Part shown: positions 14,346 through 47,215 of the stretch, piece by piece
Numbering within the stretch: position 1 is the first letter of the stretch
Layout: each line of letters opens with the position of its first letter
Assembly (NCBI GenBank): GCA_050253415.1
Contig: JBFWJC010000002.1
Coordinates: 288,001 to 352,000, forward strand
DNA from: Pedobacter sp.
Lineage (GTDB): Bacteria > Desulfobacterota > Desulfuromonadia > Desulfuromonadales > Syntrophotaleaceae
Reading direction: 5' to 3'
Length of the DNA stretch: 64,000 nt
The notes under the pieces: generated by a model
What the model saw: only the letters and a program-made list of their open reading frames with translations
Database searches by the model: none
Told to the model about the DNA's origin: nothing
Made by a program: the position numbers and the translations under genes

Positions 14346-14450
14346 GTGACTGGTGACTGGTGACTGGTGACTGGTGACTGGTGACTGGTGACTGGTGACT
14401 GGTGACTGGTGACTGGTGACTGGTGACTGGTGACTGGTGACTGGTGACTG
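14346..14450 (+). repeat. Perfect heptamer tandem repeat (GTGACTG)x15
   Basis: 105 nt = 15 exact units, 14 nt after the mqnC stop; degenerate inverted units at 14531-14558. Confidence 0.97.
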
Positions 14451-14644
14451 GAAACCCCATTCCTGTCGCGTCGCCGGAATGGAGCGGTTGGCCCCGCACT
14501 CTAGAAGGGCACGGTTTCAGGAGCCTCAACCAATCACTAATCACCAATTACCACCCACTTTCCTTTAAGGTCAACCTTGCACCCGCCTGAAATTTCCTTT
14601 AGGCTGTCAGTTTCAGTCATCAACTTCTTCATGCCGGAGACATC

Positions 14645-25493: not shown

Positions 25494-25587
25494 TGACAGG
25501 CTATTTGTCTCAAGATTGATCGTCCTTTATTCTGACGTTTTTCATGGCTGGACATTTGTCTCACATCGACTTATTCGTCTCAAAATT
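25494..25587 (+). promoter_or_regulatory. Candidate AcoR upstream activating sites (three GTCTCA boxes)
   Basis: TGTCTCA at 25506, CTGGACATTTGTCTCA at 25548-25563, GTCTCAAAATT at 25577; same motif upstream of thiC and acoA. Confidence 0.65.
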
Positions 25588-25724
25588 ATCTCTCCTGTAA
25601 CCTCCGTTTTTTTTCCCTCGTTTATTCCCTGTATACATAACTATTTGTGTAAGCATTTTTGTAACCACTGATAAAACAACAGTTTAAAAATAGTTTTTGT
25701 TGAAAAATCTTCGAGGCAGGAGAT

Positions 25725-25741
25725 TTGGTACAACCATTGAA
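25725..25741 (+). promoter_or_regulatory. Candidate sigma54 promoter (variant -12) for the butanediol operon
   Basis: TTGGTACAACCATTGAA (GG-N10-GA), about 140 nt downstream of the GTCTCA boxes. Confidence 0.5.
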
Positions 25742-26058
25742 GATTAGCCTGTACGTTCTGCAGTAAAGAGGTTTGACAGGCAGGGTTCAGTTTGGGAGGT
25801 CTCCAGGAGGCACTGTGACAGCAGTGAGGGCCTGGCCGGTGGAGCAGAGATTATTTTCCATTCGGTGTATTTCACGAAAGGAGGCTTTTTGGGGGGTATC
25901 TCGGGTTGATTGCATGGAGGAGTTTTGTGAGGTCGAGGTAGGCAAAAAGCAGTACTTGATTGGCATGTGTATTTTGATTCGTGCGAGGCTGAAGTTTGGC
26001 GGTTGTGCGTTATGGCGCCCGGTCGCTCCTGTTAACGTCTAGCAAAAGGAAGCTTTAC

Positions 26059-27045
26059 ATGGAACCTTATAGTTTAAATACGATTCTGATGGTTTTCGGT
26101 GGTGGTATTGTGGGGACTGCGCTGGGCGGTCTGTGGGCCGTGGTGTTCTGTGCTCTTTTTGGTTTGATAGGCATCGGTGTAATTCTGAGTGGAGGCACTG
26201 ATTTCGTTCTGTCGCAGATTGCCTTTGGACCGATTTTTGGCCCGCATGTCGGGGGCTTCGGTGCCGGTCTGGCTGCCGCTACCTACGCCGTCTGGAGAAA
26301 AAATCATCCCAGCGGGGCTGCCAAAGATATTCTTACTCCTCTTCTTCATACTTCTTGGGATGTTCTGTTGTTCGGCGGGGTTTACTCGGTTGCAAGCCAT
26401 CTGGCGTTGCAACTGGTTGGCAAGGTGCCCCTGCTGAATCAGACGGACGGTATCGCCTTTGTACTTATCGGCGGGACACTGCTTACCAAACTTATCTTCC
26501 TGCGTGAACTCCCCTGGGGACAAAAAGATTCGATCCAGAAACACGGCTTGATGGGTACTGATAACCATGCCATCTCCTGGGCTGGCTGGCAGTCGCCCTG
26601 GGGCCTGCTTCTGCCCATGAATTTTGGTGCCGGAATTTTTTCCGCAGCCCTGGCCTGGGGCATTAAGATGCAACTCGATCCCATGGTTGCGGCCGGGCAG
26701 ATTTCGGCTCTCGGCGGATTTATAGCGCCACTTCTGGTGGGGTGGTGTACCGCCATCTTAATCCTGATGGCGCTTCAGCTTGGTACCGGTAAAATACAGC
26801 AGGTTCCCATCATGCATTGCCCTTCCATTATCGGAGCCTGGGTGTTCATGTATACTGGATCGATTCTGGCTGCCGGCATCGCAGGTCTGATCGCCGGCGT
26901 GGTTCAGGAGATATCTGCACGCGTTATCTATAATCACGGCACCGCACATATCGATCCGCCGGCCACTGCAATCATGATTTGCACCTTTTTGGTCAATATC
27001 ATCATGAAACCGGAATTTCTCAATTTAGCAGCCCTGTTCAATTAA
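26059..27045 (+). CDS. Uncharacterised polytopic membrane protein; candidate 2,3-butanediol/acetoin permease
   Basis: Gly-rich with about 10 hydrophobic segments; FGPIFGPHVG and HIDPPA motifs; first gene before BDH. Confidence 0.7.
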   Translation: MEPYSLNTILMVFGGGIVGTALGGLWAVVFCALFGLIGIGVILSGGTDFVLSQIAFGPIFGPHVGGFGAGLAAATYAVWRKNHPSGAAKDILTPLLHTSWDVLLFGGVYSVASHLALQLVGKVPLLNQTDGIAFVLIGGTLLTKLIFLRELPWGQKDSIQKHGLMGTDNHAISWAGWQSPWGLLLPMNFGAGIFSAALAWGIKMQLDPMVAAGQISALGGFIAPLLVGWCTAILILMALQLGTGKIQQVPIMHCPSIIGAWVFMYTGSILAAGIAGLIAGVVQEISARVIYNHGTAHIDPPATAIMICTFLVNIIMKPEFLNLAALFN

Positions 27046-27103: not shown

Positions 27104-28177
27104 ATGGCTCAAACGATGAAAGCAGCAGTATGGCATGGCAAAAAAGACATTCGCGTTGAAGACGTAGCCGTTCCTGCACCGCCCAAGGCAAATGAAGTAC
27201 AGATTGAAGTAGACTACTGTGGCATTTGCGGGTCCGACCTGCACGAATACCTCGCAGGCCCGATCTTTATCCCCACTGAGCCCCATCCTCTGACCGGTCA
27301 CAGCGGCAAGACCATTCTTGGCCACGAGTTCTCCGGTAAGGTCGTTGCTGTTGGCTCCGATGTTACCAACGTGCGGGTCGGTGATCTGGTCGCTCCCGAT
27401 GCTTGTCAGCACTGCGGCGTTTGCGTTACCTGTCGCGAAGGTCGCTACAATGTATGCGAAAAACTGGCTTTTACTGGTCTGATGGCCGATGGCGCTTTTG
27501 CCAAGTACGTTAATGTCCCTTCCAATATCGTTTATGTCCTGCCTGAGGGTGTCACTCAGGAAGATGCAGCCCTGATCGAGCCTATCGCCACCGGGTTTAA
27601 AGCCGTGCGCATGGCTGGGACCATCCTCGGTGAAACCGCCGTGGTATTCGGTGCTGGCACAATCGGTCTCGGTGTCCTGATGTGTGCCAAGGCCGCCGGC
27701 GCTGGCAAGGTTATCGTGGTTGAGATGTCCGCCCGCCGCAAGGAACTGGCCAAAGAGTGTGGTGCCGACGTTATCCTCGACCCCAAAGAATGCGACGTTA
27801 TTGCCGAAATCAAGAAGATGACCGGTGGATCCGGTGCTGACGTTTCCTTTGAATGTATCGGCAATAAGTTCACGGGGCCCCTGGCTATCGACGCCATCCG
27901 TAACAATGGCCGTGCCGTGATCGTCGGTATTTTTGAAGAGCCCAGCTCCTTTAACTTCTTCAGCCTCAGCGCTACCGACAAAAAAGTTATCGGTACTCTG
28001 GCTTACACTTTGGATGATTTCAAAGGCGTAAGTGCTCTGCTGGCCAACGGTGCCATCAAAGCTGCTCCGATGATCACCGGCAAGATCGAGCTGGCTGACA
28101 TCGTGGATAAAGGTTTTGATGAGCTGGTCAACAATAAGGATGCTCATATCAAGATCTTGGTTAAGCCTGCGAAATAA
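27104..28177 (+). CDS. bdhA: Zn-dependent (MDR family) 2,3-butanediol dehydrogenase
   Basis: CGICGSDLHEY, GHEFSG, structural-Zn CQHCGVCVTC...C, GAGTIG; acetoin-catabolism context. Confidence 0.88.
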   Translation: MAQTMKAAVWHGKKDIRVEDVAVPAPPKANEVQIEVDYCGICGSDLHEYLAGPIFIPTEPHPLTGHSGKTILGHEFSGKVVAVGSDVTNVRVGDLVAPDACQHCGVCVTCREGRYNVCEKLAFTGLMADGAFAKYVNVPSNIVYVLPEGVTQEDAALIEPIATGFKAVRMAGTILGETAVVFGAGTIGLGVLMCAKAAGAGKVIVVEMSARRKELAKECGADVILDPKECDVIAEIKKMTGGSGADVSFECIGNKFTGPLAIDAIRNNGRAVIVGIFEEPSSFNFFSLSATDKKVIGTLAYTLDDFKGVSALLANGAIKAAPMITGKIELADIVDKGFDELVNNKDAHIKILVKPAK

Positions 28178-28241
28178 GAAGGACGAAGTCCTCGCCCGGA
28201 TGATATCCGGGCGAGGTTAGCCTCGTAGCGAGCGCCGGGGT

Positions 28242-28628
28242 ATGGGGATTAATGGTATGGCTTTTAAAAAAATGAGAGATCGGGGAATGAATGTCAGGAT
28301 AGATGATGACCTGCTTGGGCGTCTTGTGTCGTACGAGGTTCACGTCAAGAAGCGTTTTGCCCGGGTGGCACAGAGTCGCTGGCTGGATTTTAACGTTGAT
28401 GCGGAGCAGGACTATGAAAAGCTCAAAGAATTGAAAAGCCGCATTACCTCCCTGGTTGATCTGGCTTTCTGCAGGTATGGCGTGGAAAAAGGACTTATGA
28501 AGGCCGGTCGGGATAGCACCGTCTCGGACCTGGATGATGATCTGGAAAGCCTTGCAGGACAGTTGAAAAGAACATCGATGAAAGACCTCAGCCCCTCAAA
28601 GGATAAGAATGTCTCCCATGTGATCTGA
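28242..28628 (+). CDS. Hypothetical protein (start uncertain)
   Basis: ORF fills the gap within the operon on the same strand; no recognisable motif. Confidence 0.55.
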   Translation: MGINGMAFKKMRDRGMNVRIDDDLLGRLVSYEVHVKKRFARVAQSRWLDFNVDAEQDYEKLKELKSRITSLVDLAFCRYGVEKGLMKAGRDSTVSDLDDDLESLAGQLKRTSMKDLSPSKDKNVSHVI

Positions 28629-29075: not shown

Positions 29076-29567
29076 ATGAAACCACTGTTCCAGAAAGTGC
29101 TCCAGATAGCTATGGTCGTAAAGAACTGTGATGCTGCTGTAAAAACCTGGGCCGATGACTACGGTATCGGACCCTGGAATATTTATGAATTTAATCCGGA
29201 TACTGTGAACGACATGATTATCCGGGGCGAAAAGGTCGACTATGCCATGCGTCTTGCCCTGTGTGATGTCGGTGGGGTGCAATGGGAACTGATCGAGCCT
29301 AAAGACGACAAAAGCATATATGCCGAATTCCTCAAGTCCAAAGGGGAAGGTTTACATCATGTCGCTTTTGGTACCGATAATTACAAGGAAACCGTCAAGT
29401 ACTACAAAGACAAAGGCCTGCCTATCTTACAAGGCGGCGAGTGGGAAGGTTTGACTTATACCTATCTTGATTCGCAAAAAGACCTCAACCTTATTGCAGA
29501 AATTTACGACCTTACACCTGATTTCGCTTGGCCTGAACCGCAGGCTGTTTATCCCCCTGCAAAATAG
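29076..29567 (+). CDS. VOC/glyoxalase family protein, methylmalonyl-CoA-epimerase-like
   Basis: LQIAMVV, WELIEP, GEGLHHVAF, IAEIY give a Q/E/H/E metal-ligand set; AAGGAG RBS. Confidence 0.85.
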   Translation: MKPLFQKVLQIAMVVKNCDAAVKTWADDYGIGPWNIYEFNPDTVNDMIIRGEKVDYAMRLALCDVGGVQWELIEPKDDKSIYAEFLKSKGEGLHHVAFGTDNYKETVKYYKDKGLPILQGGEWEGLTYTYLDSQKDLNLIAEIYDLTPDFAWPEPQAVYPPAK

Positions 29568-29699
<132 letters not shown>

Positions 29700-29729
29700 T
29701 GAAATCACCAGATAAAGATGGAGGGAAAA

Positions 29730-30029
29730 ATGGATAAAAATCAGCTGGTAGTCCTTGCCCGATTCAAGGCACGTGAAGGTAAGGAAGATCAGGCCCACAA
29801 CGAGTTAACGGCCCTGGTCGCGCCAACACGTACCGAACCCGGCTGCAAATATTACGCGTGCCATGCGGTGCAGGAGTCGCCCGGCGAATTTGTTTTCTAT
29901 GAAATTTGGGAAACCCGCCAGGCGTTGGATGAGCATATTCAAAAACCTTATTTGCAGGCCATTCTGGGCAAAGCCGAAGAACTTTTTGCCGAGGCCCCGG
30001 ATATACGGTTCCTGGAAAAGTTAGTGTAG
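29730..30029 (+). CDS. ABM / putative quinol monooxygenase family (dimeric alpha-beta barrel)
   Basis: LVAPTRTEPGCKYY, FVFYEIWET, LDEHIQKPY; GGAGGG RBS. Confidence 0.85.
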   Translation: MDKNQLVVLARFKAREGKEDQAHNELTALVAPTRTEPGCKYYACHAVQESPGEFVFYEIWETRQALDEHIQKPYLQAILGKAEELFAEAPDIRFLEKLV

Positions 30030-30444: not shown

Positions 30445-30592
30445 GAATTTTCGTGGGGGTTTTTCGTTATGTGTCTGTCCATAACAAAGGAGGAATGTCA
30501 GGACTAGACTATTAAAATTTGCATTGCGTCATTACGCTAGGTTAGAGGAGCATATTTTTTGTAACAATTATCAGCGCATTTTTGGAGGTGTT

Positions 30593-31489
30593 ATGGAGAA
30601 GATAAGAAACAAAGCGCTTTTTCTGGTAATGGTAGCGACCTTTTTGCTGGTCGGGGGGTTCTGTAAAGCAACGAACTCTTTCGCGGTCGAAGGTATTATT
30701 CCGTATAGTGTTATCGGTACCAACGAATACAATCTGCCTGTCGGTTTTGATGAGCCGATCAATCTGCTTCTTTCCTACAATGTCTGGACGAACATTAATC
30801 AGAATTGGGATTCAAACGGTAAGGAGACATCGGTTACTCATTCAGATCTCTTCGCTTCGGTCAATAAATTTGCCCGTCTGTTCACCATCGACGGCATTGA
30901 CAATTGGGGCTTTCTGTGGGAAGGCGTCCTCTCCTTCGGTGGCTATACGGACGAAGATGGAAATCATGCTACCGGCCTGCTCGATCCCCAGACCGGTGTC
31001 GTAGCCTGGACCAAGCCCATCCCGAGCTGGACTCTTTGTTTTGAATACTGGCTGTACCTTCCTTTCGGGGACGACTCGCTCACGGGTGGTTCACTCAACC
31101 ACGCCGTTACCTGGATGAACAACCATCAGCTTTTTGATGGCAAAATCGTTGTCGACTGGGACCTCGGTTACAAGATCCGCGGGGACCAGCGGGTAAATGG
31201 TACCAGAGCTAAACAGGGTAACTCGATTTTTACAAACTGGGTTGTCACCTATATGCACAATCCTTATTTCAATCCCAACATCCATTTCGACTATGAAGCG
31301 TCCGAGTCCGGCAGGGATAAGGATACCGACGCAACTATCGCTTCCGGCTCGAATATGCAGGTTGGCATCGGTAACAGCATGAAACTCACCGATCGCCTGC
31401 TGTTCGACGTCTGGTACGCTTATGGTGTTGACGGAAGAAATGCTCCCAAGAGCAATAACGTTTTCACCCGCTTCATCTGGAGCTTCTAG
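30593..31489 (+). CDS. Outer-membrane beta-barrel channel (SphA/phenol meta-pathway type)
   Basis: Signal peptide, GLLDP motif, amphipathic aromatic strands, C-terminal TRFIWSF beta-signal; GGAGG RBS. Confidence 0.75.
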   Translation: MEKIRNKALFLVMVATFLLVGGFCKATNSFAVEGIIPYSVIGTNEYNLPVGFDEPINLLLSYNVWTNINQNWDSNGKETSVTHSDLFASVNKFARLFTIDGIDNWGFLWEGVLSFGGYTDEDGNHATGLLDPQTGVVAWTKPIPSWTLCFEYWLYLPFGDDSLTGGSLNHAVTWMNNHQLFDGKIVVDWDLGYKIRGDQRVNGTRAKQGNSIFTNWVVTYMHNPYFNPNIHFDYEASESGRDKDTDATIASGSNMQVGIGNSMKLTDRLLFDVWYAYGVDGRNAPKSNNVFTRFIWSF

Positions 31490-31865: not shown

Positions 31866-33938
31866 ATGATTATTCATGAGGTGGAAAGGATGCCTGAACA
31901 GGAATTCAACAGGCATATCCAGCGGATATTTTCCTGTGTTTCCGGCAACAAAGGAAATGACAGAGTTGAAGTCGACACTCCTATTGTTATGTCGTGGGAG
32001 CGTAGTCTTCAGCATTATGGTATCGACCCGAGTCAACCTACTCCGGTGCAGGTCCTTACTGCCTCAGAGTTGCGCGACTACACCCAGCCTATAGAGCGTT
32101 TTTTGCGCATCGCCAAAGCCGGGGTTCAGTACCTGCATCGCCAGGTGGCGGACTTGGGTTATGCGACCCTGCTGTGTGATGCGAACGGTGTTACAGTAGA
32201 CTGGCGGGGAGATGAGCGTTTTTCCCGACAGTGGAAGGATACGGGTCTTTTCCTCGGAGCGGTGTGGAACGAGCATCAGGAGGGAACCTGCGGGGTCGGC
32301 ACCGCGCTTGTGGAGCAGGTGCCACTGACGGTTCACAAGGGTGACCATTTCCGGGCCAAAAACGCCAATCTGACATGCTCCTGCGCTCCGATTATCGGTC
32401 CAGGCGGTAAAGCCATGGGCCTTATCGATGTCTCAGCCCTGCATTCTCCCGATTCCAAAGACAGTCAGCATCTTGCCTTGCAACTTGTCATGCAGTCCGC
32501 GCGCATGATCGAGTCGGCTTATTTCCTCAGTCAGTTCGAAGATCAGTGGGTATTGAGGTTGAGTTCCGAGCGGGAGTTGGCCGAGGTTTCGAGCGAGTTT
32601 CTTATCGCCATAGATGGCGCAGGAAAAATTCTGGCCGTGGACCGTATCGCGCGCCGCCTTCTTGGGCGTGAGGCGGGTGGCGGTAACCTGGTCGGGCGTG
32701 CGGTCGGTGAAGTTTTTGATCTCGATTTTGAAAAGTTACTGGATATCTCCTCCCGCTCCAGCCTGGTACTGCCCATTCGTACCCAGCGAGCCGGAATTCA
32801 GATGTTTGCGTCCCTGCGTTCTCCTCAGGCCATTTCCATCAAACCTGTCAGCCGTGTCGCCGAAGCTGCTCCTCAGAAGAGACGAATCCCGCGTCCCGGC
32901 GAGCCCTTGAGTCTCGATTATCTGGCAGGCTCGGATCGCCAACTTAAAGAAAGCGTGGAGCGCATCAAGCGCGTCATGAATAAGCCCATACCGGTTCTTC
33001 TGAATGGTGAGACCGGAACCGGCAAGGAAATGTTTGCTCAGGCGATCCATAATGCCAGTCGACGCGCGGACAAGCCGTTTGTGGCGGTAAACTGCGCCGC
33101 GATCCCCGAATCCCTGATAGAGAGCGAACTTTTCGGCTATAAAGACGGCGCTTTTACCGGTGCACGCAGCAAGGGGATGCGGGGCAAGATCCTGCAATCG
33201 GATGGAGGTACCCTGTTCCTGGACGAAATCGGGGACATGCCAGCAAGCCTGCAGCCACGGTTGTTGCGGGTTCTGGCGGAGCGCGAGGTTACTCCGCTTG
33301 GAGGCGAGACGCCGATTCCTGTAGATCTGCACGTGATCTGCGCCACTCACCGGAATATCCTGGATATGGTGGCCAGCGGGGAATTCCGGGAAGATCTCTA
33401 CTATCGCCTCAATGGCATTTCCTTTGAGTTGCCGCCGTTGCGGCAGCGCTCGGATATCGCCCGCCTGATCAATGATGTGTTGATCATCGAGGCGGAAACC
33501 AGTCCCGATAAGTTGCACATTGATGACTGTGCCATGCAGGTTCTTACCGAATTCGCCTGGCCTGGCAATATCCGGCAACTGCGCAATGCATTGCGTTATG
33601 CTTTGGCGGTTTGTGACAATGGTGTCATTACCTGTGACGATCTGCCGGTCGATGTCGCGGGAGGTCAGCAACCGTCACGGCGTGTGGCGGCGGCCCTTCC
33701 CGGACCGCTTGAAACCGTGTTGCCGGACCCCCCCGCTGAGACGGAAGGCTCATCCTGTATCCAGGATGTTGTTGCCGGACTCAACGGTATGGAACAGGCC
33801 GAGCGCCAGGTCATCCTCGATTCGCTTAAAAAGCATAAGTGGCAGGTTGCCAGGGCAGTAAAGGAAGTAGGAATAAGCCGGGCCACCATGTATCGAAAAA
33901 TGGAAAAATACGGCATCATTCCACCCAATAAGCGCTGA
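31866..33938 (+). CDS. acoR: Sigma54-dependent activator, AcoR type (GAF-AAA+-Fis HTH)
   Basis: SWERS, GAVWNE...[55 protein letters not shown]. Confidence 0.9.
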   Translation: MIIHEVERMPEQEFNRHIQRIFSCVSGNKGNDRVEVDTPIVMSWERSLQHYGIDPSQPTPVQVLTASELRDYTQPIERFLRIAKAGVQYLHRQVADLGYATLLCDANGVTVDWRGDERFSRQWKDTGLFLGAVWNEHQEGTCGVGTALVEQVPLTVHKGDHFRAKNANLTCSCAPIIGPGGKAMGLIDVSALHSPDSKDSQHLALQLVMQSARMIESAYFLSQFEDQWVLRLSSERELAEVSSEFLIAIDGAGKILAVDRIARRLLGREAGGGNLVGRAVGEVFDLDFEKLLDISSRSSLVLPIRTQRAGIQMFASLRSPQAISIKPVSRVAEAAPQKRRIPRPGEPLSLDYLAGSDRQLKESVERIKRVMNKPIPVLLNGETGTGKEMFAQAIHNASRRADKPFVAVNCAAIPESLIESELFGYKDGAFTGARSKGMRGKILQSDGGTLFLDEIGDMPASLQPRLLRVLAEREVTPLGGETPIPVDLHVICATHRNILDMVASGEFREDLYYRLNGISFELPPLRQRSDIARLINDVLIIEAETSPDKLHIDDCAMQVLTEFAWPGNIRQLRNALRYALAVCDNGVITCDDLPVDVAGGQQPSRRVAAALPGPLETVLPDPPAETEGSSCIQDVVAGLNGMEQAERQVILDSLKKHKWQVARAVKEVGISRATMYRKMEKYGIIPPNKR

Positions 33939-38514: not shown

Positions 38515-39597
38515 ATGGCCAGCGAGTCCTTTGAAAATGCGACGATAGGTATCATCGCCAATCCTGCTTCCGGGCGAGATATCCGTCGTTTGGTAAGCGC
38601 CGCTTCCGGTTTCTCCATTGCCGAAAAAGCCAATATCGTTCGCAGGTTGTGCCTTGGTATGCGCGCTATAGGCGTCGAAAAGGTCTGCATGATGCCCGAC
38701 TTTTCCGGGATCGCAGGCAGTGTGTTGCGCAGTAAGGAACAGGGCACTCTGGTACTCGATGAGCATTGGCCTGAAATCGAATTGCTCGAAATTCCCATAC
38801 AAGAAAAAGCCATTGATACGTTGCGCGCTGTCGAGAAGATGGTTGAAATGGGGGTGCGGATCATTATCGTGCTGGGGGGTGACGGTACACACCGGTTGGT
38901 AGCGAATAACTGCGGCAACATCCCCTTGATCGCTTTGTCCACCGGTACCAATAATGCTTTTCCGCATTTTCAGGAGGCAACGGTAGCGGGTATGGCGGCC
39001 GGCCTGGTGGCACGGGGCGCGGTTTCTGTCTGCGAAGCTACTCTCCGTAATAAAGTGCTGCGGGTGGAGATTAACGGCCATTGCCGGGATCTGGCGTTGG
39101 TCGATTTGTGTTTGACCGATGATATGTGGGTCGGCGCACGGGCCATGTGGAAGCCGGAACGCGTCAAGGAGATTTTTGTAACTTATGCCGAATCCGATGC
39201 TATCGGCCTGTCCGCTGTGGCTGGACTGGCCAATCCAATCCCCCGCGACAGCGGCCAAGGGCTTCATCTTACCCTCTGCCCGCCGGGACAGGGCATTCTG
39301 ACCTTGTGCGCACCTATCGCGCCGGGATTGATCGTACCGGTGGGTATATCGGAACTGCGCATCCTTCGTCCGCATGAAAAAACCCCTGTAAGCCTGACAA
39401 CCGGTGTCGTCACCCTGGACGGAGAGCGTGAGTTCGCTTTTCGCGAAGGTGACCAGGTTAATGTCTGGCTCGACCTCGATGGCCCTTTGACCATCGATGT
39501 ACCGCGGGTTCTGCATGTGGCTGCCGAGCGGGGCATCTTTACCTGGCCCTCGCCCTATATCTCTTCAAAAAGTCTTCAACAGGGGGACGTCCAATAG
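38515..39597 (+). CDS. acoX: Acetoin catabolism protein X (NAD-kinase-like fold)
   Basis: GIIANPASGRDIRR, LGGDGT, STGTNNAFP, LDGERE. Confidence 0.88.
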   Translation: MASESFENATIGIIANPASGRDIRRLVSAASGFSIAEKANIVRRLCLGMRAIGVEKVCMMPDFSGIAGSVLRSKEQGTLVLDEHWPEIELLEIPIQEKAIDTLRAVEKMVEMGVRIIIVLGGDGTHRLVANNCGNIPLIALSTGTNNAFPHFQEATVAGMAAGLVARGAVSVCEATLRNKVLRVEINGHCRDLALVDLCLTDDMWVGARAMWKPERVKEIFVTYAESDAIGLSAVAGLANPIPRDSGQGLHLTLCPPGQGILTLCAPIAPGLIVPVGISELRILRPHEKTPVSLTTGVVTLDGEREFAFREGDQVNVWLDLDGPLTIDVPRVLHVAAERGIFTWPSPYISSKSLQQGDVQ

Positions 39598-40604: not shown

Positions 40605-40647
40605 TGCGACAGGTGTTTGTCTTGCCGTAAGACACTTGTTTCAAAAT
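40605..40647 (+). promoter_or_regulatory. Candidate AcoR binding site upstream of acoA
   Basis: GACAGGTGT...TAAGACACTTGTTTCAAAAT aligns with GACAGGTGT...TGAGACAGGTGTCTCAAAAT upstream of thiC. Confidence 0.7.
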
Positions 40648-40814
40648 TATCTATACGCCCTGAAACAAACCCTCTGAAATTTACCGAAAGTCATTTTTTT
40701 TAAGATGTTAGGTATATTTTCAAAAATCCTTTTGGAAAAAAATGGTCGTAAAAACAATGTTTTGCAAAGTTGATTAAGGTGGAGGATATGGTTTGCTGTT
40801 TTTGAAGGTCGTCC

Positions 40815-40831
40815 TTGGCACCTGTTGTGCT
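40815..40831 (+). promoter_or_regulatory. Sigma54 promoter for the aco operon
   Basis: TTGGCACCTGTTGTGCT, GG-N10-GC. Confidence 0.8.
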
Positions 40832-41019: not shown

Positions 41020-42000
41020 ATGAAGGCACAACTGTCGAAAGAGGATCTTCTCAAGGCTTATCGTAAGATGCGGGAGATTCGTGAGTTTGAAGATCGCGTT
41101 CATGTTGAGTTCGCGAAGGGAACCCTTCCCGGTTTCGTGCATCTTTACTCCGGTGAAGAAGCAGTAGCCGTCGGTGTTTGTGAACATCTCAACGATCTGG
41201 ACCGCATTGCCAGTACGCACCGTGGCCACGGCCATTGCATTGCCAAGGGCGTTGAGCTTGAGGGCATGATGGCTGAGATTTACGGCAAGAAAACCGGTAC
41301 CTGTGGTGGTAAAGGCGGTTCCATGCATATCGCCGACCTCGACAAGGGCATGATGGGCGCTAACGGTATCGTCGGTGCCGGTCCCCCGCTGATCGCCGGT
41401 GCCGCTCTGGCTTCCAAACTGCGCAAAGACGGCAGCGTCGGCGTGGTCTTCTTCGGCGATGGCGCTTCCAACCAGGGCACCAACTTCGAATCGATGAACT
41501 TCGCCGTGACCCTCGACCTGCCGATGATTTTCGTGCTGGAGAACAATGGTTACGCCGAGTCGACTTCTCCCAAGTACTCCGCCAAGGTCGGTTCCGACAA
41601 CATCGCCGACCGTGCCCGCGGTTTCGGCATGCCTGCGGTGACCGTTGACGGCAACGATTTCTTCGCCGTTTACGAAGCCGCCGGTGAAGCCATTGAGCGC
41701 GCCCGCAAAGGCGGCGGCCCGACCTTTATCGAATGCAAGACCATGCGTTATTTCGGTCACTTCGAAGGTGATGCCCAGACCTACCGTCCCAAGGACGAAG
41801 TTAAGGGCGCCCGTGCAAACGATTGCCCCCTCAAGCGCTTTGCTGCTGCCGTGACCTCCGCCGGTCTGGTGGAAGCCGCCGAACTCGAGGCCATCGACAA
41901 GGACGTTCTGGCTCAGGTCGAGAAGGCCGTCAAGGATGCCGAGGCTGCTCCTCAGCCTGACCTGAGCGCGTTGATGGAAGATGTATACGTCTCTTACTGA
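41020..42000 (+). CDS. acoA: Acetoin dehydrogenase E1 alpha (TPP-dependent)
   Basis: PGFVHLYSGEEA, STHRGHGH, GKGGSMH, GDGASNQG...ENN TPP motif, GHFEGD. Confidence 0.95.
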   Translation: MKAQLSKEDLLKAYRKMREIREFEDRVHVEFAKGTLPGFVHLYSGEEAVAVGVCEHLNDLDRIASTHRGHGHCIAKGVELEGMMAEIYGKKTGTCGGKGGSMHIADLDKGMMGANGIVGAGPPLIAGAALASKLRKDGSVGVVFFGDGASNQGTNFESMNFAVTLDLPMIFVLENNGYAESTSPKYSAKVGSDNIADRARGFGMPAVTVDGNDFFAVYEAAGEAIERARKGGGPTFIECKTMRYFGHFEGDAQTYRPKDEVKGARANDCPLKRFAAAVTSAGLVEAAELEAIDKDVLAQVEKAVKDAEAAPQPDLSALMEDVYVSY

Positions 42001-42041: not shown

Positions 42042-43082
42042 ATGGCCAGAAAGATAATGTTCAAGGACGCAATCAACGAAGCGATGCGTTTGGAAATGGA
42101 GCGTGACCAGTCCGTCATCCTCCTGGGTCTGGATGTTGCCGGTGCCGCTGGTACCGACCAGCCCCGCGATGCCTGGGGCGGCGTTCTCGGCGTCAGCAAG
42201 GGGCTTTATCCGCTGTTCCCCGACCGTGTTATCGATACTCCGATTTCCGAGTCCGCCTATATCGGTGCCGCAGTCGGCGCTTCGGCTTGCGGCATGCGTG
42301 CCATCGGCGAACTGATGTTCTCCGACTTCATGGGTGTTTGCTTTGACCAGCTGTACAACCAGGCCGCCAAGTTCCGTTACATGTTCGGTGGCAAGGCTGT
42401 TACTCCGGTAACCATCCGCACCATGATCGGCGCCGGTTTCAGTGCTGCTGCTCAGCATTCCCAGAGCCCCTACTCGATGTTCGCTCATGTGCCGGGTATG
42501 AAGTGCATCATTCCTTCCAATCCTTATGATGCCAAGGGGCTGCTGGCTGCCTCCATCGCTGACGACGACCCCTGTGTGTTCTTTGAGCACAAGGCCCTTT
42601 ACACCATGAAGGGTGAAGTTCCGGAAGAGCACTACACCATTCCTCTGGGTAAGGCGAATGTCGTTCAAGAAGGTAAGGACGTTACCATCGTCGCTCTGGC
42701 CCGCATGGTTCAGTTCGCCGAAAAAGCTGCCAAGAAGCTTGCCAAAGACGGTATCGAATGCACCATCATCGACCCCCGTACCATTTCGCCGATGGATTGG
42801 AACGCCATCTACTCCAGCGTCGAGAAAACCGGTCGCCTGGTGGTTGTTGACGAGAGCTACGACCTTTGCGGTGTTGCTTCCGATGTTTGTGGCCACGTGG
42901 CCCAGAATGTGTTCGGCGCTTTGAAAGCAGCTCCCCAGATGGTGACGGCTCCTTTCGTTCCCACACCTTTTGCATCAAATCTTGAGGCTGCGTATCTCCC
43001 TGATGCCAACAAGATTGAAGCGGCTGTGCGTAAAACCATGGGCGTCTCCAGCCCCGTGAAGATGCAAGCTGCGGTAAATTGA
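42042..43082 (+). CDS. acoB: Acetoin dehydrogenase E1 beta
   Basis: DAWGGVLG, DTPISES, NQAAKFRYMFGG, AAQHSQ, FFEHK. Confidence 0.95.
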   Translation: MARKIMFKDAINEAMRLEMERDQSVILLGLDVAGAAGTDQPRDAWGGVLGVSKGLYPLFPDRVIDTPISESAYIGAAVGASACGMRAIGELMFSDFMGVCFDQLYNQAAKFRYMFGGKAVTPVTIRTMIGAGFSAAAQHSQSPYSMFAHVPGMKCIIPSNPYDAKGLLAASIADDDPCVFFEHKALYTMKGEVPEEHYTIPLGKANVVQEGKDVTIVALARMVQFAEKAAKKLAKDGIECTIIDPRTISPMDWNAIYSSVEKTGRLVVVDESYDLCGVASDVCGHVAQNVFGALKAAPQMVTAPFVPTPFASNLEAAYLPDANKIEAAVRKTMGVSSPVKMQAAVN

Positions 43083-43161: not shown

Positions 43162-44526
43162 ATGAGCAACAATAACATTATAGCCCTTACCATGCCTAAA
43201 TGGGGCCTCACCATGGAAGAAGGTACCGTCGCTTCCTGGCTGATGGATGAAGGCGACACTATCGAAATCGGGAGTGAAATTCTCGAAATCGAAACCGACA
43301 AGATCGCGCAGGCTGTAGAAAGTTCTGTTGAAGGAATCCTGCGTCGTAAGATCGGTGAAGAGGGCGAAGAGTACCCTGTTCAAGCTCTGATCGGCATCAT
43401 CGCTGGTGAGGATGTTTCGGAAGATGCCATCGATGCTTTTATCGCCAGCTATGGCAGTGGCGCTGCAGAAGAAGATTCTGAAGACGAGCCTGCAGCACAA
43501 GCAGCTCCTGCCGCTGTGGCCGGGATTCATGAACTGACCATGCCCAAGTGGGGTCTGACTATGGAAGAAGGTACCATCTCTTCCTGGTTGCTCGACGAAG
43601 GTGATGAGATCGAAGTCGGCACCGAAATCATGGAGATCGAAACCGACAAGATCGCTCAACCTGTGGAAAGTACTGTCGCCGGGATTCTGCGTCGCAAGAT
43701 TGGTGAAGAAGGCGAAGAATATCCGGTGAAGGAACTGCTCGGTATCATTGCTGATGCTTCGGTATCTGATGCCGACATCGATGCCTATCTCGCAAGCCGC
43801 GGTGGCGCTGCTGCCCCGGTCGAAGCAGAAGAGGCATCTGCCGCGGCCGCTGCCCCGGCAAAGCCGACCAGCAAGCCGATGTCCCCTATGCGTGCTGCAA
43901 TTTCCAATACGGTGACCAACTCCTGGACGGTTCCTCAGTTCCCGGTTACCATGGGCATCGACATGGGAGCGGCCAAGGAATTCCGGGCCGGTCTCAAGGC
44001 AGCCGGCAAGGCCGTATCCATGAACGATATGGTGGTTAAAGCCTGCGCCAAGGCCATCGAAAAGTATCCGATGGTTAACGCCAACCTGGGTAGCAAGGAG
44101 TACATCCTTAATCCCGAGGTAAACATCGCCGTGGCAGTTGGCCTCGACGATGGCTTGATGATGCCGGTAGTCAAAAGCTGTCAGGCCCTTAGCCTGGAAG
44201 AGGTTTCCAGCGCTTCCCGTGCTTTGATCGACAAGGTCAAGGCCGGTACCTGCGGCCCGGCAGAGATGGCCGGTGGTAACTTCGCCATTTCCAATCTGGG
44301 TATGCTTGGGGTCGATCAGTTCGTGGCCCTGGTACCCCCGGGAATGACCGCTATTCTGGCGGTCGGCGGCATCAAGGAAGAAGTCGTAGTGAAAGACGGC
44401 AACATGGTCCCTGCATCGACGATGAAGGTCACCCTGGTAGCCGATCACCGGGTTGTGGATGGATTGTATTCCGCTCAATACCTGGTTGAATTGAAGCGTC
44501 TTCTGGAAAATCCCGAAGAGCTTTAA
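43162..44526 (+). CDS. acoC: Dihydrolipoamide acetyltransferase E2 with two lipoyl domains
   Basis: Two MPKWGLTMEEG...ETDKI domains; catalytic ADHRVVDG. Confidence 0.95.
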   Translation: MSNNNIIALTMPKWGLTMEEGTVASWLMDEGDTIEIGSEILEIETDKIAQAVESSVEGILRRKIGEEGEEYPVQALIGIIAGEDVSEDAIDAFIASYGSGAAEEDSEDEPAAQAAPAAVAGIHELTMPKWGLTMEEGTISSWLLDEGDEIEVGTEIMEIETDKIAQPVESTVAGILRRKIGEEGEEYPVKELLGIIADASVSDADIDAYLASRGGAAAPVEAEEASAAAAAPAKPTSKPMSPMRAAISNTVTNSWTVPQFPVTMGIDMGAAKEFRAGLKAAGKAVSMNDMVVKACAKAIEKYPMVNANLGSKEYILNPEVNIAVAVGLDDGLMMPVVKSCQALSLEEVSSASRALIDKVKAGTCGPAEMAGGNFAISNLGMLGVDQFVALVPPGMTAILAVGGIKEEVVVKDGNMVPASTMKVTLVADHRVVDGLYSAQYLVELKRLLENPEEL

Positions 44527-44818: not shown

Positions 44819-45754
44819 ATGATCATGGAAGTTATGCAGAAAAAACGTGGTGGCGATAAAACGAGTTTGGCGGAAATAGACAGCCAGCAGGTGCTGTCCA
44901 AGCCTTCCTGGATTCGGGCCAAGGCACCGGCCGCACCGGAAGTGGGCAGGTTGACCGGGATTTTACGGGATCACCGTCTGCATACGGTATGCGAGGAAGC
45001 CAGCTGTCCCAATCTTGGCGAATGTTTCAAGCGCGGCACCGCAACTTTCATGATCATGGGTGATGTTTGCACCCGCCGTTGTCCTTTTTGCGACGTTGCT
45101 CATGGTCGCCCTGGCGACCTGGACGCAGCGGAGCCGCAACATCTGGCGGATGCCATTCACGCCATGCAGCTTCAATACGTGGTGATCACTTCCGTTACTC
45201 GTGACGATCTTGAAGACAGCGGCGCGGGACATTTTGCCCGGTGTGTCGCTGAAATTCGTAAAGTGACCAAAGGCGTCAAGGTGGAGATTTTGGTGCCGGA
45301 TTTTCGTGGTCATGTCGATGTCGCCCTCACCAATCTCGGTGATGGTCTGCCTGATGTGTTCAATCATAATCTGGAAACGGTACCGCGGCTTTACGCTGAA
45401 TCCCGCCCCGGTGCCCGATATAACGAGTCCTTATGTTTGCTGCAGCGGTTCAAGGAGGTCTACCCCGGTATTCCAACCAAGTCCGGCCTGATGGTTGGCC
45501 TTGGCGAAACCGATGACGAGATTCTTGAAGTGATGCGGGATCTGCGGGCGCATGGCTGCGATATGCTGACCATAGGTCAATATCTGCGGCCCAGCCGCCA
45601 TCATCTGCCGGTACAACGCTACGTCACGCCTGAACAGTTTGAGGCGTTCCGGGTTGCCGGCCTGGCGATGGGCTTTTCCCAGGTCGCTTCAGGACCCTTG
45701 GTGCGTTCTTCCTATCACGCCGATCTGCAGGCGCAAAACGTTTTGCATAAATGA
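44819..45754 (+). CDS. lipA: Lipoyl synthase (AcoS)
   Basis: [32 protein letters not shown]. Confidence 0.95.
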
Positions 45755-45802
45755 CAAGCAGCGGACAGGGCCCCCGGGCTTTTCCGCATGAGGAGAATAG
45801 TA

Positions 45803-47215
45803 ATGGCTGACGAAAATTTTGATCTCATTGTGTTGGGTGCCGGCCCTGGCGGCTATGTCGGAGCGATTCGCGCTTCTCAGTTGGGCATGAAGGTGGCCGT
45901 AGTGGAAAGCCGTCCGACTCTGGGCGGTGTCTGTCTCAACGAAGGCTGTATTCCTAGTAAGGCATTGCTCGATTCCAGTGAGCATTTCGCCCTGGCACGG
46001 GATAAATTCGACATGCACGGCATCGAAATCCCCGCGCCCAAGCTGAACCTGGCCAAAATGATGGAACGTAAGGAAGGAGTCGTCAGCGACCTTACCGGCG
46101 GCATCGCTTTCCTTTTCAAAAAGAATAAAGTTACCTGGATCAAGGGTACCGGTAAACTGCTGGGTGCCGGTGCCGATGGCCTGCAGCAGGTTGAAGTCAC
46201 CGGTAAAAACGCCGGCGTGGTCAAGGGCAAGCATATTCTGCTCGCTACGGGCGGCAAGGTGGCACAGGTGCCTGGTATCACCGTTGACAACGATGTGATC
46301 ATCGACAATGTTGGTGCTCTGAGCCTCAATCAGGTCCCCGAACATCTTATGATTATCGGTGCCGGTTATATCGGCCTGGAGCTTGGGTCCGTCTGGCTGC
46401 GCCTTGGGTCCAAAGTAACCGTGGTCGAGATGCTTCCCAAAATGCTGCCTAAATCAGATGGCGACACCACCCAGGCTCTGCAGCGCTCCCTGAAAAAACA
46501 GGGTATGACCTTCAACATGGGCACCTGCGTCGGCGGTATTGAAGTTGCCGGCGGGAAGGCGACTGTGAAGCTGGTCAAAGGCGATAAAGTAACGGAAGTG
46601 GTCTGCGACAAGGTCCTCATGTCGATCGGTCGCAAACCCAATATCGATGGTCTCGGTCTGGCCGAAGTTGGCGTGGAGATGGGCGAACGCGGCTGTATCA
46701 AGGTTGACGAAAATTATGCGACCAGCGTACCCGGCATCTATGCCATCGGTGACTTGATCCCCGGTCCGATGCTGGCGCACAAGGCCTCTGAAGAAGCGGT
46801 GGTGTTTGTTGAGCGCCTGGTCGGTAAAAACTCCGAGGTGCACTACGACACCATTCCCGGCGTTTGCTACACCTGGCCTGAAGTTGCTTCCGTCGGCAAG
46901 ACCGAAGAGCAGTTGCAGGAAGCCGGCGTGCCCGTCAAGGTCGGTAAATTTAACTTTGTCGGTAACGGTCGCGCCCGGGCTATGGCGGAGACCGAAGGTT
47001 TCGTCAAAATCATTGCCAACGCGGATAACGGTCAGGTGCTGGGCGTGCATATCTTCGGCCCGCGCGCTTCCGACATGATCGCGGAAGCGGTCGCCGTCAT
47101 GAGTTACGGCGGGACCGCTCACGACATCGGCGCCATGTTCCATGGCCATCCGACCCTGTCCGAAGCGGTCAAGGAAGCAGCGTTGGATGTCGACGGTGCA
47201 GCGGTTCACTGCTAA
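45803..47215 (+). CDS. lpdA: Dihydrolipoamide dehydrogenase E3 (AcoL)
   Basis: GAGPGGY, GGVCLNEGCIPSK, GAGYIGLE, HPTLSE; AGGAG RBS. Confidence 0.95.
   Translation: MADENFDLIVLGAGPGGYVGAIRASQLGMKVAVVESRPTLGGVCLNEGCIPSKALLDSSEHFALARDKFDMHGIEIPAPKLNLAKMMERKEGVVSDLTGGIAFLFKKNKVTWIKGTGKLLGAGADGLQQVEVTGKNAGVVKGKHILLATGGKVAQVPGITVDNDVIIDNVGALSLNQVPEHLMIIGAGYIGLELGSVWLRLGSKVTVVEMLPKMLPKSDGDTTQALQRSLKKQGMTFNMGTCVGGIEVAGGKATVKLVKGDKVTEVVCDKVLMSIGRKPNIDGLGLAEVGVEMGERGCIKVDENYATSVPGIYAIGDLIPGPMLAHKASEEAVVFVERLVGKNSEVHYDTIPGVCYTWPEVASVGKTEEQLQEAGVPVKVGKFNFVGNGRARAMAETEGFVKIIANADNGQVLGVHIFGPRASDMIAEAVAVMSYGGTAHDIGAMFHGHPTLSEAVKEAALDVDGAAVHC

Follow-up and report, generated by a model that had tools for sequence, protein, structure and literature searches.

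The VOC gene of an acetoin and butanediol cluster encodes a candidate acetoin racemase

The window analyzed here is a 64,000-nucleotide stretch of the Pedobacter sp. assembly GCA_050253415.1 (contig JBFWJC010000002.1, positions 288,001 to 352,000) and carries, within a cluster of acetoin and butanediol genes, a gene for a protein of the vicinal oxygen chelate (VOC) superfamily:

29076-29567, plus strand: VOC protein (Pcar_0333 ortholog), candidate acetoin racemase, ATG to TAG, 163 aa

The protein is best explained as a metal-dependent isomerase of the VOC superfamily that represents a distinct, uncharacterised subfamily and likely forms an accessory part of anaerobic acetoin-catabolic clusters. 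Because it fits the fold, the ligands and the gene context best, interconversion of (R)- and (S)-acetoin (EC 5.1.2.4), perhaps extending to related acyloins and proceeding via a chelated cis-enediolate, is tentatively favored as its most likely reaction. More broadly, and with somewhat greater reserve, we propose that this subfamily could be the missing acetoin racemase, working through a symmetric cis-enediolate and having been exchanged, jointly with acoAB, among anaerobic Bacteria and Archaea within a hitherto unrecognised accessory set of VOC, DUF6506, Lin0512 and AcoX proteins.

Acetoin racemase activity has been on record since 1960. No gene assigned to it was found in the searchable full-text literature, outside which most subscription journals lie, in agreement with the initial annotation of this stretch, which had held EC 5.1.2.4 to be without an assigned gene. 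Models of butanediol stereoisomer formation invoke such a racemase, and the one postulated for Klebsiella was not confirmed, as recounted in the passages of PMC4709696 on this subject. Within the same literature Pcar_0333 was found only in PMC3543383, whose passages on the gene label its product a 'methylmalonyl-CoA epimerase family protein', place it in a 28-gene acetoin cluster of Pelobacter carbinolicus, the counterpart of the cluster described here, and propose no racemase. The racemase reading of the VOC protein is absent from the searchable literature, and its linkage to aco genes across Bacteria and Archaea is new here.

Close homologues are found in acetoin clusters of Bacteria and Archaea

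Gene neighborhoods were compared for 17 loci from one genome per species, the best 80 of 553 metagenome loci and the paralogue in the window's own genome. Scores were obtained for 94 of these 98 loci; L015, L016, L027 and L051 were dropped because their best high-scoring segment pair was shorter than 130 aa, though the first three visibly lie in an aco-type context. Genes for E1 alpha and beta, E2, AcoX, AcoR, butanediol dehydrogenase (BDH) and DUF6506 at a distance of at most 8 kb were counted as acetoin genes. Among the 25 homologues with at least 54% identity, 21 have acetoin genes within 8 kb, three do not and one locus is too short, whereas below 54% identity such genes accompany 2 of 69 homologues. 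The three exceptions are crenarchaeal, and each of their genomes carries an AcoA homologue (54-55% identity) elsewhere. Genetic linkage to acetoin metabolism, which is expected of an enzyme of EC 5.1.2.4, a class set by activity alone, without defining it, is seen for 21/25 close homologues. The co-occurrence with aco/bdh genes on which the initial annotation had made its racemase proposal depend is clearly present among close homologues and in two domains of life.

The same association is apparent in a maximum-likelihood tree of 92 rows, where the aco label needs seven changes compared with 21.5 for shuffled labels and none of 500 shuffles is as low, figures that are inflated by kinship. The window's protein falls into a 22-row group (support 83/73) consisting of 18 aco-linked loci, the three crenarchaeal loci and the short one.

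Gene order varies between lineages. Desulfuromonadales show either BDH-(128 aa)-DUF6506-VOC-SDR-ABM-DUF190-porin-AcoR, SDR being a short-chain dehydrogenase/reductase, or BDH...VOC-DUF6506-AcoR. Six Thermococci loci have the order E1alpha-E1beta-VOC, continued in five of them by a permease-like gene and then DUF6506. The opposite strand carries E2, Lin0512, AcoX and a lipoate ligase (LplA). Identity to the window's proteins is 51-55% for the E1 subunits of these loci and 39-40% for their AcoX proteins. The layout in a metagenome-assembled genome (MAG) of the Peptococcaceae is Lin0512-VOC-E1alpha-E1beta. Metagenome contigs read AcoA-AcoB-AcoC-AcoL-VOC-SDR-AcoR (L025), AcoL-AcoS-AcoA-AcoB-VOC-SDR-AcoX-AcoC (L026) and AcoR-BDH-VOC-DUF6506-AcoA-AcoB-AcoX-AcoC-AcoL-Lin0512 (L028). 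Open reading frames (ORFs) of these related loci were called by a greedy longest-ORF rule that fails in some high-GC contigs (L033, L035, L037, L041), whose neighbors are poorly described, and the Pfam scans covered 79/128 and 58/127 ORFs. The comparison shows that predicted acetoin dehydrogenase clusters have uncharacterised accessory genes in common across Thermococci, Crenarchaeota, Firmicutes and Desulfuromonadales.

Lin0512_fam (PF09585) and AcoX recur in VOC-bearing acetoin clusters of archaea and Firmicutes (L006, L009, L011 and L013 of Thermococci, and L005, L008 and L028); a search of the window's own genome gave no Lin0512 homologue. Multi-pass membrane proteins lacking a Pfam family are encoded beside the VOC gene in Thermococci (L006:8568-9596, L013:8518-9582, L010:2030-3064) and in a Geobacteraceae MAG (L004:6196-7338). 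These are unrelated at the tblastn level to the membrane protein encoded at 25996-27045 of the window and represent possible acetoin permeases.

Fold and metal ligands define a distinct VOC subfamily

The VOC ORF starts with an ATG located 6 nt downstream of GGAAGGAG and ends with a TAG at 29567. Its product belongs to the VOC superfamily as judged by its match to Pfam Glyoxalase_4 (PF13669; 63 bits, cut-off 27), while the Pfam Glyoxalase model PF00903 stays below cut-off (16.7 vs 20.6). The nearest named NCBIfam model is that of methylmalonyl-CoA epimerase (MCE; TIGR03081). Of 333 candidates from a search against 5.8 billion clusters, 323 proteins pass E<=0.001. The best 120 of them have similar lengths (116-224 aa, mostly 160-175) and bear only automatic names such as hypothetical protein, VOC family protein or methylmalonyl-CoA/ethylmalonyl-CoA epimerase.

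In a 41-sequence family alignment E71, H94, H95 and E142 are invariant, as are Y29, W34, F39, Y82 and Y130, and Q10 is kept in at least 90% of sequences. The tetrad Q10/E71/H94-H95/E142 is present in 25/25 homologues with at least 54% identity, and profile alignments place its columns opposite H7, Q60, H83/H84 and E134 of Streptomyces coelicolor MCE. These alignments bear out the Q/E/H/E metal ligands initially annotated for the protein. A second intact copy in the own genome (G000:C2:216443-216931, minus strand) is 82% identical, with a dN/dS of about 0.05 at saturated dS. The invariant tetrad and this dN/dS ratio together show what appears to be a working metalloenzyme under selection.

An AF2 model computed with the family alignment as input (pLDDT 96.5) displays the strand and helix order of two VOC modules. 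The paired beta-alpha-beta-beta-beta modules with one metal site that characterize the VOC fold are supported by this model, by Foldseek and by the conserved ligand columns. Foldseek returned VOC enzymes only, with 3gm5 first (TM 0.77), followed by MCEs at 17-24% identity, then by 4-hydroxyphenylpyruvate dioxygenases (HPPDs) and a clostridial glyoxalase I. The best solved relative, PDB 3GM5, is a structural genomics entry of unknown function from Thermoanaerobacter tengcongensis described as a putative MCE. It matches with a profile E of 1e-31 at 28% identity, and its aligned ligand columns read Q, E, HH and E, but it lies outside the aco-linked group by identity and is without the C-terminal tail of the VOC protein.

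MCEs (S. coelicolor 6WF6, P. shermanii 1JC5, human MCEE) resemble the protein in their single-chain two-module VOC fold (Foldseek TM 0.60-0.67), in a metal site at the same four columns, in a common 'GEG-HH-AFG' motif and in proton abstraction alpha to a metal-bound carbonyl. They differ in that the VOC protein has Gln for His as first ligand, Glu for Gln as second, and a C-terminus longer by about 20 residues, in which the motif PDFxWPEPxAVYP is conserved. With 46.5 bits against an equivalog cut-off of 114.95 (the same value as in the genome scan) it does not reach TIGR03081 membership, and no own-genome protein exceeds this cut-off. Instead of the MCE ligand set His/Gln/His/Glu, Gln10 and Glu71 occupy the positions of H7 and Q60 in S. 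coelicolor MCE; H7 and Q60 are ligands in MCE, consistent with the title of a Q60A PDB entry. The catalytic Glu43 of MCE is likewise not conserved. Among the 25 close homologues the aligned D46 column holds D 16 times, N five times, Q three times and E once, in a loop where the alignment is only moderately reliable. Methylmalonyl-CoA mutase (PF01642) was not found in the own genome (G000, 100% complete), while the control was positive in 8/14 genomes. Because the protein stays below the cut-off, has different ligands, does not conserve the second catalytic Glu and is not accompanied by a mutase that could be found, it is very probably not an MCE. The MCE likeness noted in the initial annotation thus holds for the nearest named model, while MCE membership fails on these four features.

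An acyl-CoA epimerase, either converting (R)- to (S)-3-hydroxybutanoyl-CoA arising from accidental aldol addition in acetoin dehydrogenase or acting as a true MCE, is therefore a very unlikely alternative. MCE is the nearest model of known function, MCEs are the nearest solved enzymes, and a guess of this kind has been published for Pcar_0333 (PMC3543383, section 9 and Fig. 3 legend). Besides the features just listed, the required 3-hydroxyacyl-CoA dehydrogenase is encoded outside the cluster, the two own genes of this kind being located at C2:230908 and C2:700234. No such domain was found among the Pfam-scanned ORFs of related loci, where L031 has one gene of the enoyl-CoA hydratase family.

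Glyoxalase I (human GLO1, E. coli GloA) is a second relative within the VOC superfamily. It moves a proton on an enediolate chelated by the metal, with glutamate ligands serving as bases, and accepts both configurations of its substrate. In human glyoxalase I the ligands are Gln33/Glu99/His126/Glu172, and both Glu act as bases on the enediolate. The set of two Glu, one His and one Gln in the VOC protein (Q10/E71/H95/E142) is of this type. Unlike glyoxalase I, the VOC protein pairs its modules within the monomer as MCE does, and its context is acetoin rather than methylglyoxal. It has no match to glyox_I (TIGR00068) at E<=0.01, and the sole TIGR00068 match of the own genome is encoded elsewhere (C1:791162-791527, 77.5 bits). 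The MCE and glyoxalase functions that the initial annotation had kept as alternatives are weakened accordingly, the former by four failed features and the latter by the missing model match and the better glyoxalase I-like gene.

Extradiol dioxygenase and HPPD functions were also considered and rejected. TIGR01263 scores 23.5 against 277 bits, and the Q/E/H/E ligands do not constitute a 2-His-1-carboxylate iron site; the host organisms are anaerobes. Dioxygenase and bleomycin-binding-protein assignments are both rejected on the ligand set and its invariance. Whatever its exact reaction, the conserved VOC subfamily defined here falls outside both MCE and glyoxalase I, which corrects the 'methylmalonyl-CoA epimerase' labels given to its members.

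Within acetoin catabolism the VOC protein might act on another small alpha-hydroxy- or alpha-oxo-carbonyl compound, which we consider unlikely. Possible examples are the thiol hemithioacetal of methylglyoxal in a glyoxalase-I-like reaction, acetol/lactaldehyde isomerisation or a side product of the thiamine diphosphate (ThDP) or lipoyl chemistry of E1/E2. The glyoxalase I-type ligand set would suit such a substrate, and the aco context is tight but names no substrate. In a sister clade (44-53% identity) L038 lies beside a ThDP enzyme and several members lie beside SDR or medium-chain dehydrogenase/reductase (MDR) oxidoreductases outside aco clusters, neighbors that point to acyloins and diols at large and not only to acetoin. 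On the other hand, neither glyoxalase model is matched above its limit and a glyoxalase I-like gene exists elsewhere in the genome, acetoin cleavage is no obvious source of methylglyoxal, and diacetyl is without a proton for a 1,2-shift. The L038 neighbor (L038:683-2296) directly follows a VOC homologue with 46% identity and contains acetolactate synthase-type N, M and C domains; it is another apparent link between the wider VOC family and acyloin chemistry.

Acetoin could be racemised through a mirror-symmetric enediolate

In the favored racemase reaction, acetoin would chelate the metal bound by Gln10, Glu71, His95 or His94, and Glu142 via its carbonyl and hydroxyl oxygens, and a ligand glutamate would take the C3 proton to yield a metal-bound cis-enediolate. 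Two routes could lead from there to the other enantiomer. The second glutamate might reprotonate C3 on the opposite face, or reprotonation might take place at C2 on the same face, a suprafacial 1,2-proton shift of the glyoxalase I type that would require only a single base. A mirror plane bisects the C2=C3 bond of the acetoin cis-enediol, so that the 1,2-shift would in itself already be a racemisation. Ketose 3-epimerases (D-psicose/D-tagatose 3-epimerase) form a metal-bound cis-enediolate next to a ketone with two ligand glutamates on opposite faces. They offer a mechanistic precedent for epimerising a carbon beside a ketone, but have an unrelated TIM-barrel fold and sugar substrates. Proton abstraction alpha to a metal-bound carbonyl, the chemistry initially suggested for the protein, is sound.

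The role of such an enzyme would be to supply an enantioselective E1 from whichever enantiomer the stereospecific MDR/SDR dehydrogenases or the environment provide. If true, an orphan EC number would be closed and the use of all acetoin and butanediol stereoisomers by anaerobes with stereospecific dehydrogenases would be explained. The gene would then also represent a tool, or a deletion target, for producing optically pure acetoin and 2,3-butanediol.

Several observations weigh against an acetoin racemase. Acetoin undergoes spontaneous enolisation, which is quicker at the temperatures where Thermococci grow, and racemises chemically, and to our knowledge classical aerobic aco operons are without such a VOC gene. 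Among 151 genomes of the order, VOC orthologues (at least 81% identity, one cut by a contig end) occur in 8, all of which fall among the 15 genomes with an AcoA orthologue of at least 72% identity, a distribution that in itself speaks for the link to acetoin genes. No VOC match at E<=1e-30 was found in the remaining 7/15 aco-positive genomes, and aco clusters can do without the VOC gene. One of these seven, G062 (same genus, 99% complete), carries a cluster (L102, C14:4252-11213) with the order porin-membrane protein-BDH-DUF6506-SDR-AcoR and no VOC gene. If a racemase exists, it could equally be one of the other conserved, uncharacterised cluster proteins (DUF6506, Lin0512, AcoX, ABM).

The need for a racemase in turn rests on the stereospecificity of acetoin dehydrogenase, which is undetermined according to the acetoin passages of PMC3543383. 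These passages propose that BudX (MDR) and BudZ (SDR) interconvert acetoin enantiomers through meso-butanediol. A P. putida mutant devoid of all three enzymes that oxidise butanediol shows normal growth on racemic acetoin, and both enantiomers are depicted there as substrates of the complex (PMC8427195). A racemase could be superfluous given either the MDR/SDR route via meso-butanediol or an E1 that does not select between enantiomers.

It is accordingly possible, if somewhat unlikely, that no dedicated racemase is needed owing to MDR/SDR inversion or an unselective E1. The VOC protein would then have a role not yet imagined, for example together with DUF6506 or Lin0512, or the racemase, if any, could be DUF6506. 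The BudX/BudZ proposal, the P. putida data and the G062 cluster with its DUF6506 and SDR all favor this alternative. The BudX/BudZ route would achieve the same net inversion between (R)- and (S)-acetoin in the same organism group and gene clusters, but through two NAD-dependent redox steps and with both dehydrogenase types, which several VOC clusters lack within the sequence seen. Against this alternative, Thermococci clusters carry the VOC gene with no butanediol dehydrogenase within the loci, and the invariant tetrad and the low dN/dS ratio mark the VOC protein as a selected metalloenzyme. The SDR of the G062 cluster is full-length, and its permease-like protein is of the L004 type and not of the window's type.

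DUF6506 is a weaker racemase candidate

DUF6506 (about 100 aa) is located next to or near the VOC gene in 17 related loci and is also present without it in G062. Bacterial and archaeal loci in which the two genes keep company include L003-L006, L009-L011, L013, L014, L020, L021, L027 and L028. C59, D86 and H88 are invariant in this protein, as are the motifs 'IELCGGFG' and 'VRFDxHPGL'. Its model (pLDDT 88) is a small Rossmann-like fold with the invariant C59 at a strand-to-helix junction, a position that counts in favor of DUF6506 as racemase. Foldseek gave no match at E<=0.001, and the best weak matches are arylmalonate decarboxylases (AMDases) at E of about 1e-2. A wide structure search found hydantoin racemase, maleate isomerase, AMDase and allantoin racemase at Z 6.0-6.6, all of which we take to be enzymes of the Asp/Glu-racemase superfamily. 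These matches are tied with many unrelated Rossmann-like lobes, all at Z <8. A profile search of PDB sequences gave one weak match to arginase (E 0.0044) over 'GG..G...VGVV.FD.HP', which serves as a lead only.

DUF6506 may thus be seen as a weak rival candidate for the racemase, and VOC orthologues without DUF6506 exist in L008 and L024-L026. The predicted complex of the VOC and DUF6506 proteins scored 0.00, a value that is informative neither way. The term 'DUF6506' was not found in the searchable full-text literature.

The VOC gene is part of a same-strand row from butanediol dehydrogenase to acoABCSL

In the window the VOC gene lies in one plus-strand cluster with an MDR butanediol dehydrogenase, AcoR and acoABCSL that extends over about C2:314000-337800 of the own genome (G000). 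Its predicted genes are:

25996-27045, plus strand: multi-pass membrane protein of the Pcar_0329 type, outside any Pfam family and a putative permease for acetoin/butanediol; conserved upstream of BDH in L001-L003, L014 and L020
27104-28177, plus strand: MDR zinc-type 2,3-butanediol dehydrogenase, budX type (ADH_N, ADH_zinc_N); 71-91% identity in related clusters
28242-28628, plus strand: 128-aa ORF without family; kept in L001-L003, L014 and L020
28688-28990, plus strand: DUF6506, 100 aa from ATG (longest ORF from 28643); PF20116, 122.8 bits
29583-29702, plus strand: C-terminal remnant of a BudC-type SDR, 39 codons and stop, in frame with the VOC gene behind its TAG
29718-30029, plus strand: ABM-domain protein, 103 aa; PF03992, 60 bits; kept in L001-L003, L014, L016 and L020
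30097-30444, plus strand: DUF190 protein (Pfam match)
30524-31489, plus strand: outer-membrane channel-like (porin-like) protein of the Phenol_MetA_deg family (Pfam match)
31866-33938, plus strand: AcoR-type sigma-54-dependent activator; 46-95% identity in related clusters
38515-39597, plus strand: AcoX, NAD-kinase-like protein of acetoin clusters; 36-49% identity to archaeal and Firmicute cluster copies
41020-42000, plus strand: acoA
42042-43082, plus strand: acoB
43162-44526, plus strand: acoC
44819-45754, plus strand: acoS
45788-47215, plus strand: acoL

AcoR is followed on the plus strand by thiC, thiG, thiH, AcoX and thiE and then by acoA, acoB, acoC, acoS, acoL and lipB. A simple scan listed no terminator-like sites on the plus strand between 26141 and 30678. 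The placement of the VOC gene inside a butanediol operon, as initially annotated, is borne out by this same-strand row from BDH to acoABCSL.

Directly downstream of the VOC gene the SDR remnant retains a sole in-frame start codon, which would leave 27 codons. Among NCBIfam models its 39 residues match best the C-terminal ~25 residues of acetoin reductase and (S)-acetoin-forming diacetyl reductase, and a full-length SDR (~244 aa) occupies the same position in L003, L014, L016 and L020. The deleted BudC-type gene that had been reported at this position is therefore real, and the remnant has already been published as Pcar_3424 (PMC3543383, in its coverage of the cluster). The ABM gene at 29718-30029 is absent from the published P. 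carbinolicus cluster table (PMC3543383, Table S2).

The second VOC copy is part of a decayed module (L019, G000:C2:213570-217190, minus strand) that comprises the C-terminal half of DUF6506, the VOC gene, SDR fragments and an AcoR paralogue. The SDR there consists of frame-shifted N-terminal fragments, while the AcoR paralogue is intact and 63% identical. In both own-genome loci the VOC gene is retained and the adjoining SDR decayed; intact SDR dehydrogenases are encoded elsewhere in the genome (C1:122396-123124, C3:110544-111248). Because the SDR has decayed beside both VOC copies while G062 keeps its SDR without a VOC gene, this pattern, seen in three loci only, fits partial redundancy of a racemase and the MDR/SDR route.

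Shared promoter elements suggest joint control by AcoR

Common sequence elements precede the row containing budX and the VOC gene and the acoA gene:

25580-25591, plus strand: first copy of the 12-mer TCAAAATTATCT, candidate AcoR site, common to the acoA promoter region
25726-25740, plus strand: sigma-54-like -24/-12 element TGGTAC-N5-TTGA with 2 mismatches, ahead of the budX-VOC row, weak alone
40641-40652, plus strand: second copy of TCAAAATTATCT, upstream of acoA
40816-40830, plus strand: sigma-54-like promoter TGGCACCTGTTGTGC (TGGCAC-N5-GTGC) with 1 mismatch, upstream of acoA

Exactly two copies of the 12-mer TCAAAATTATCT (25580 and 40641) are present in the window, and 100 shuffles yielded none. 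The motif TTYGTCTCA is found three times within 25504-25582 (25504, 25555, 25574), and these repeats, too, are candidate AcoR sites. The distance from the 12-mer to the sigma-54-like element is 146 bp for the budX-VOC row and 175 bp for acoA, and the placement of the element at 25726 relative to the 12-mer mirrors the acoA promoter region. Mismatches were counted against the common sigma-54 consensus. The pattern itself is not enriched in the window (8 matches vs 6.4 expected); of its matches, only those ahead of the two operons were used, each of which comes with a copy of the 12-mer. Since both rows are preceded by the same 12-mer and a sigma-54-like element, the arrangement suggests that AcoR may jointly control the budX-VOC row and acoA.

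The 28-gene acetoin cluster of P. carbinolicus is mostly upregulated on acetoin, according to the passages of PMC3543383 on this cluster. Contigs from a marine-sediment RNA library match 29099-29356 within the VOC gene with one difference and neighboring genes with none. They come from two runs of one study and are available as contigs only, from which strand, level and even transcription are not readable given possible DNA carry-over. Uncovered stretches such as 27616-28231 carry no meaning.

Elsewhere in the window, a perfect tandem repeat of the heptamer GTGACTG (15.1 copies, 14346-14451) is located between two plus-strand genes.

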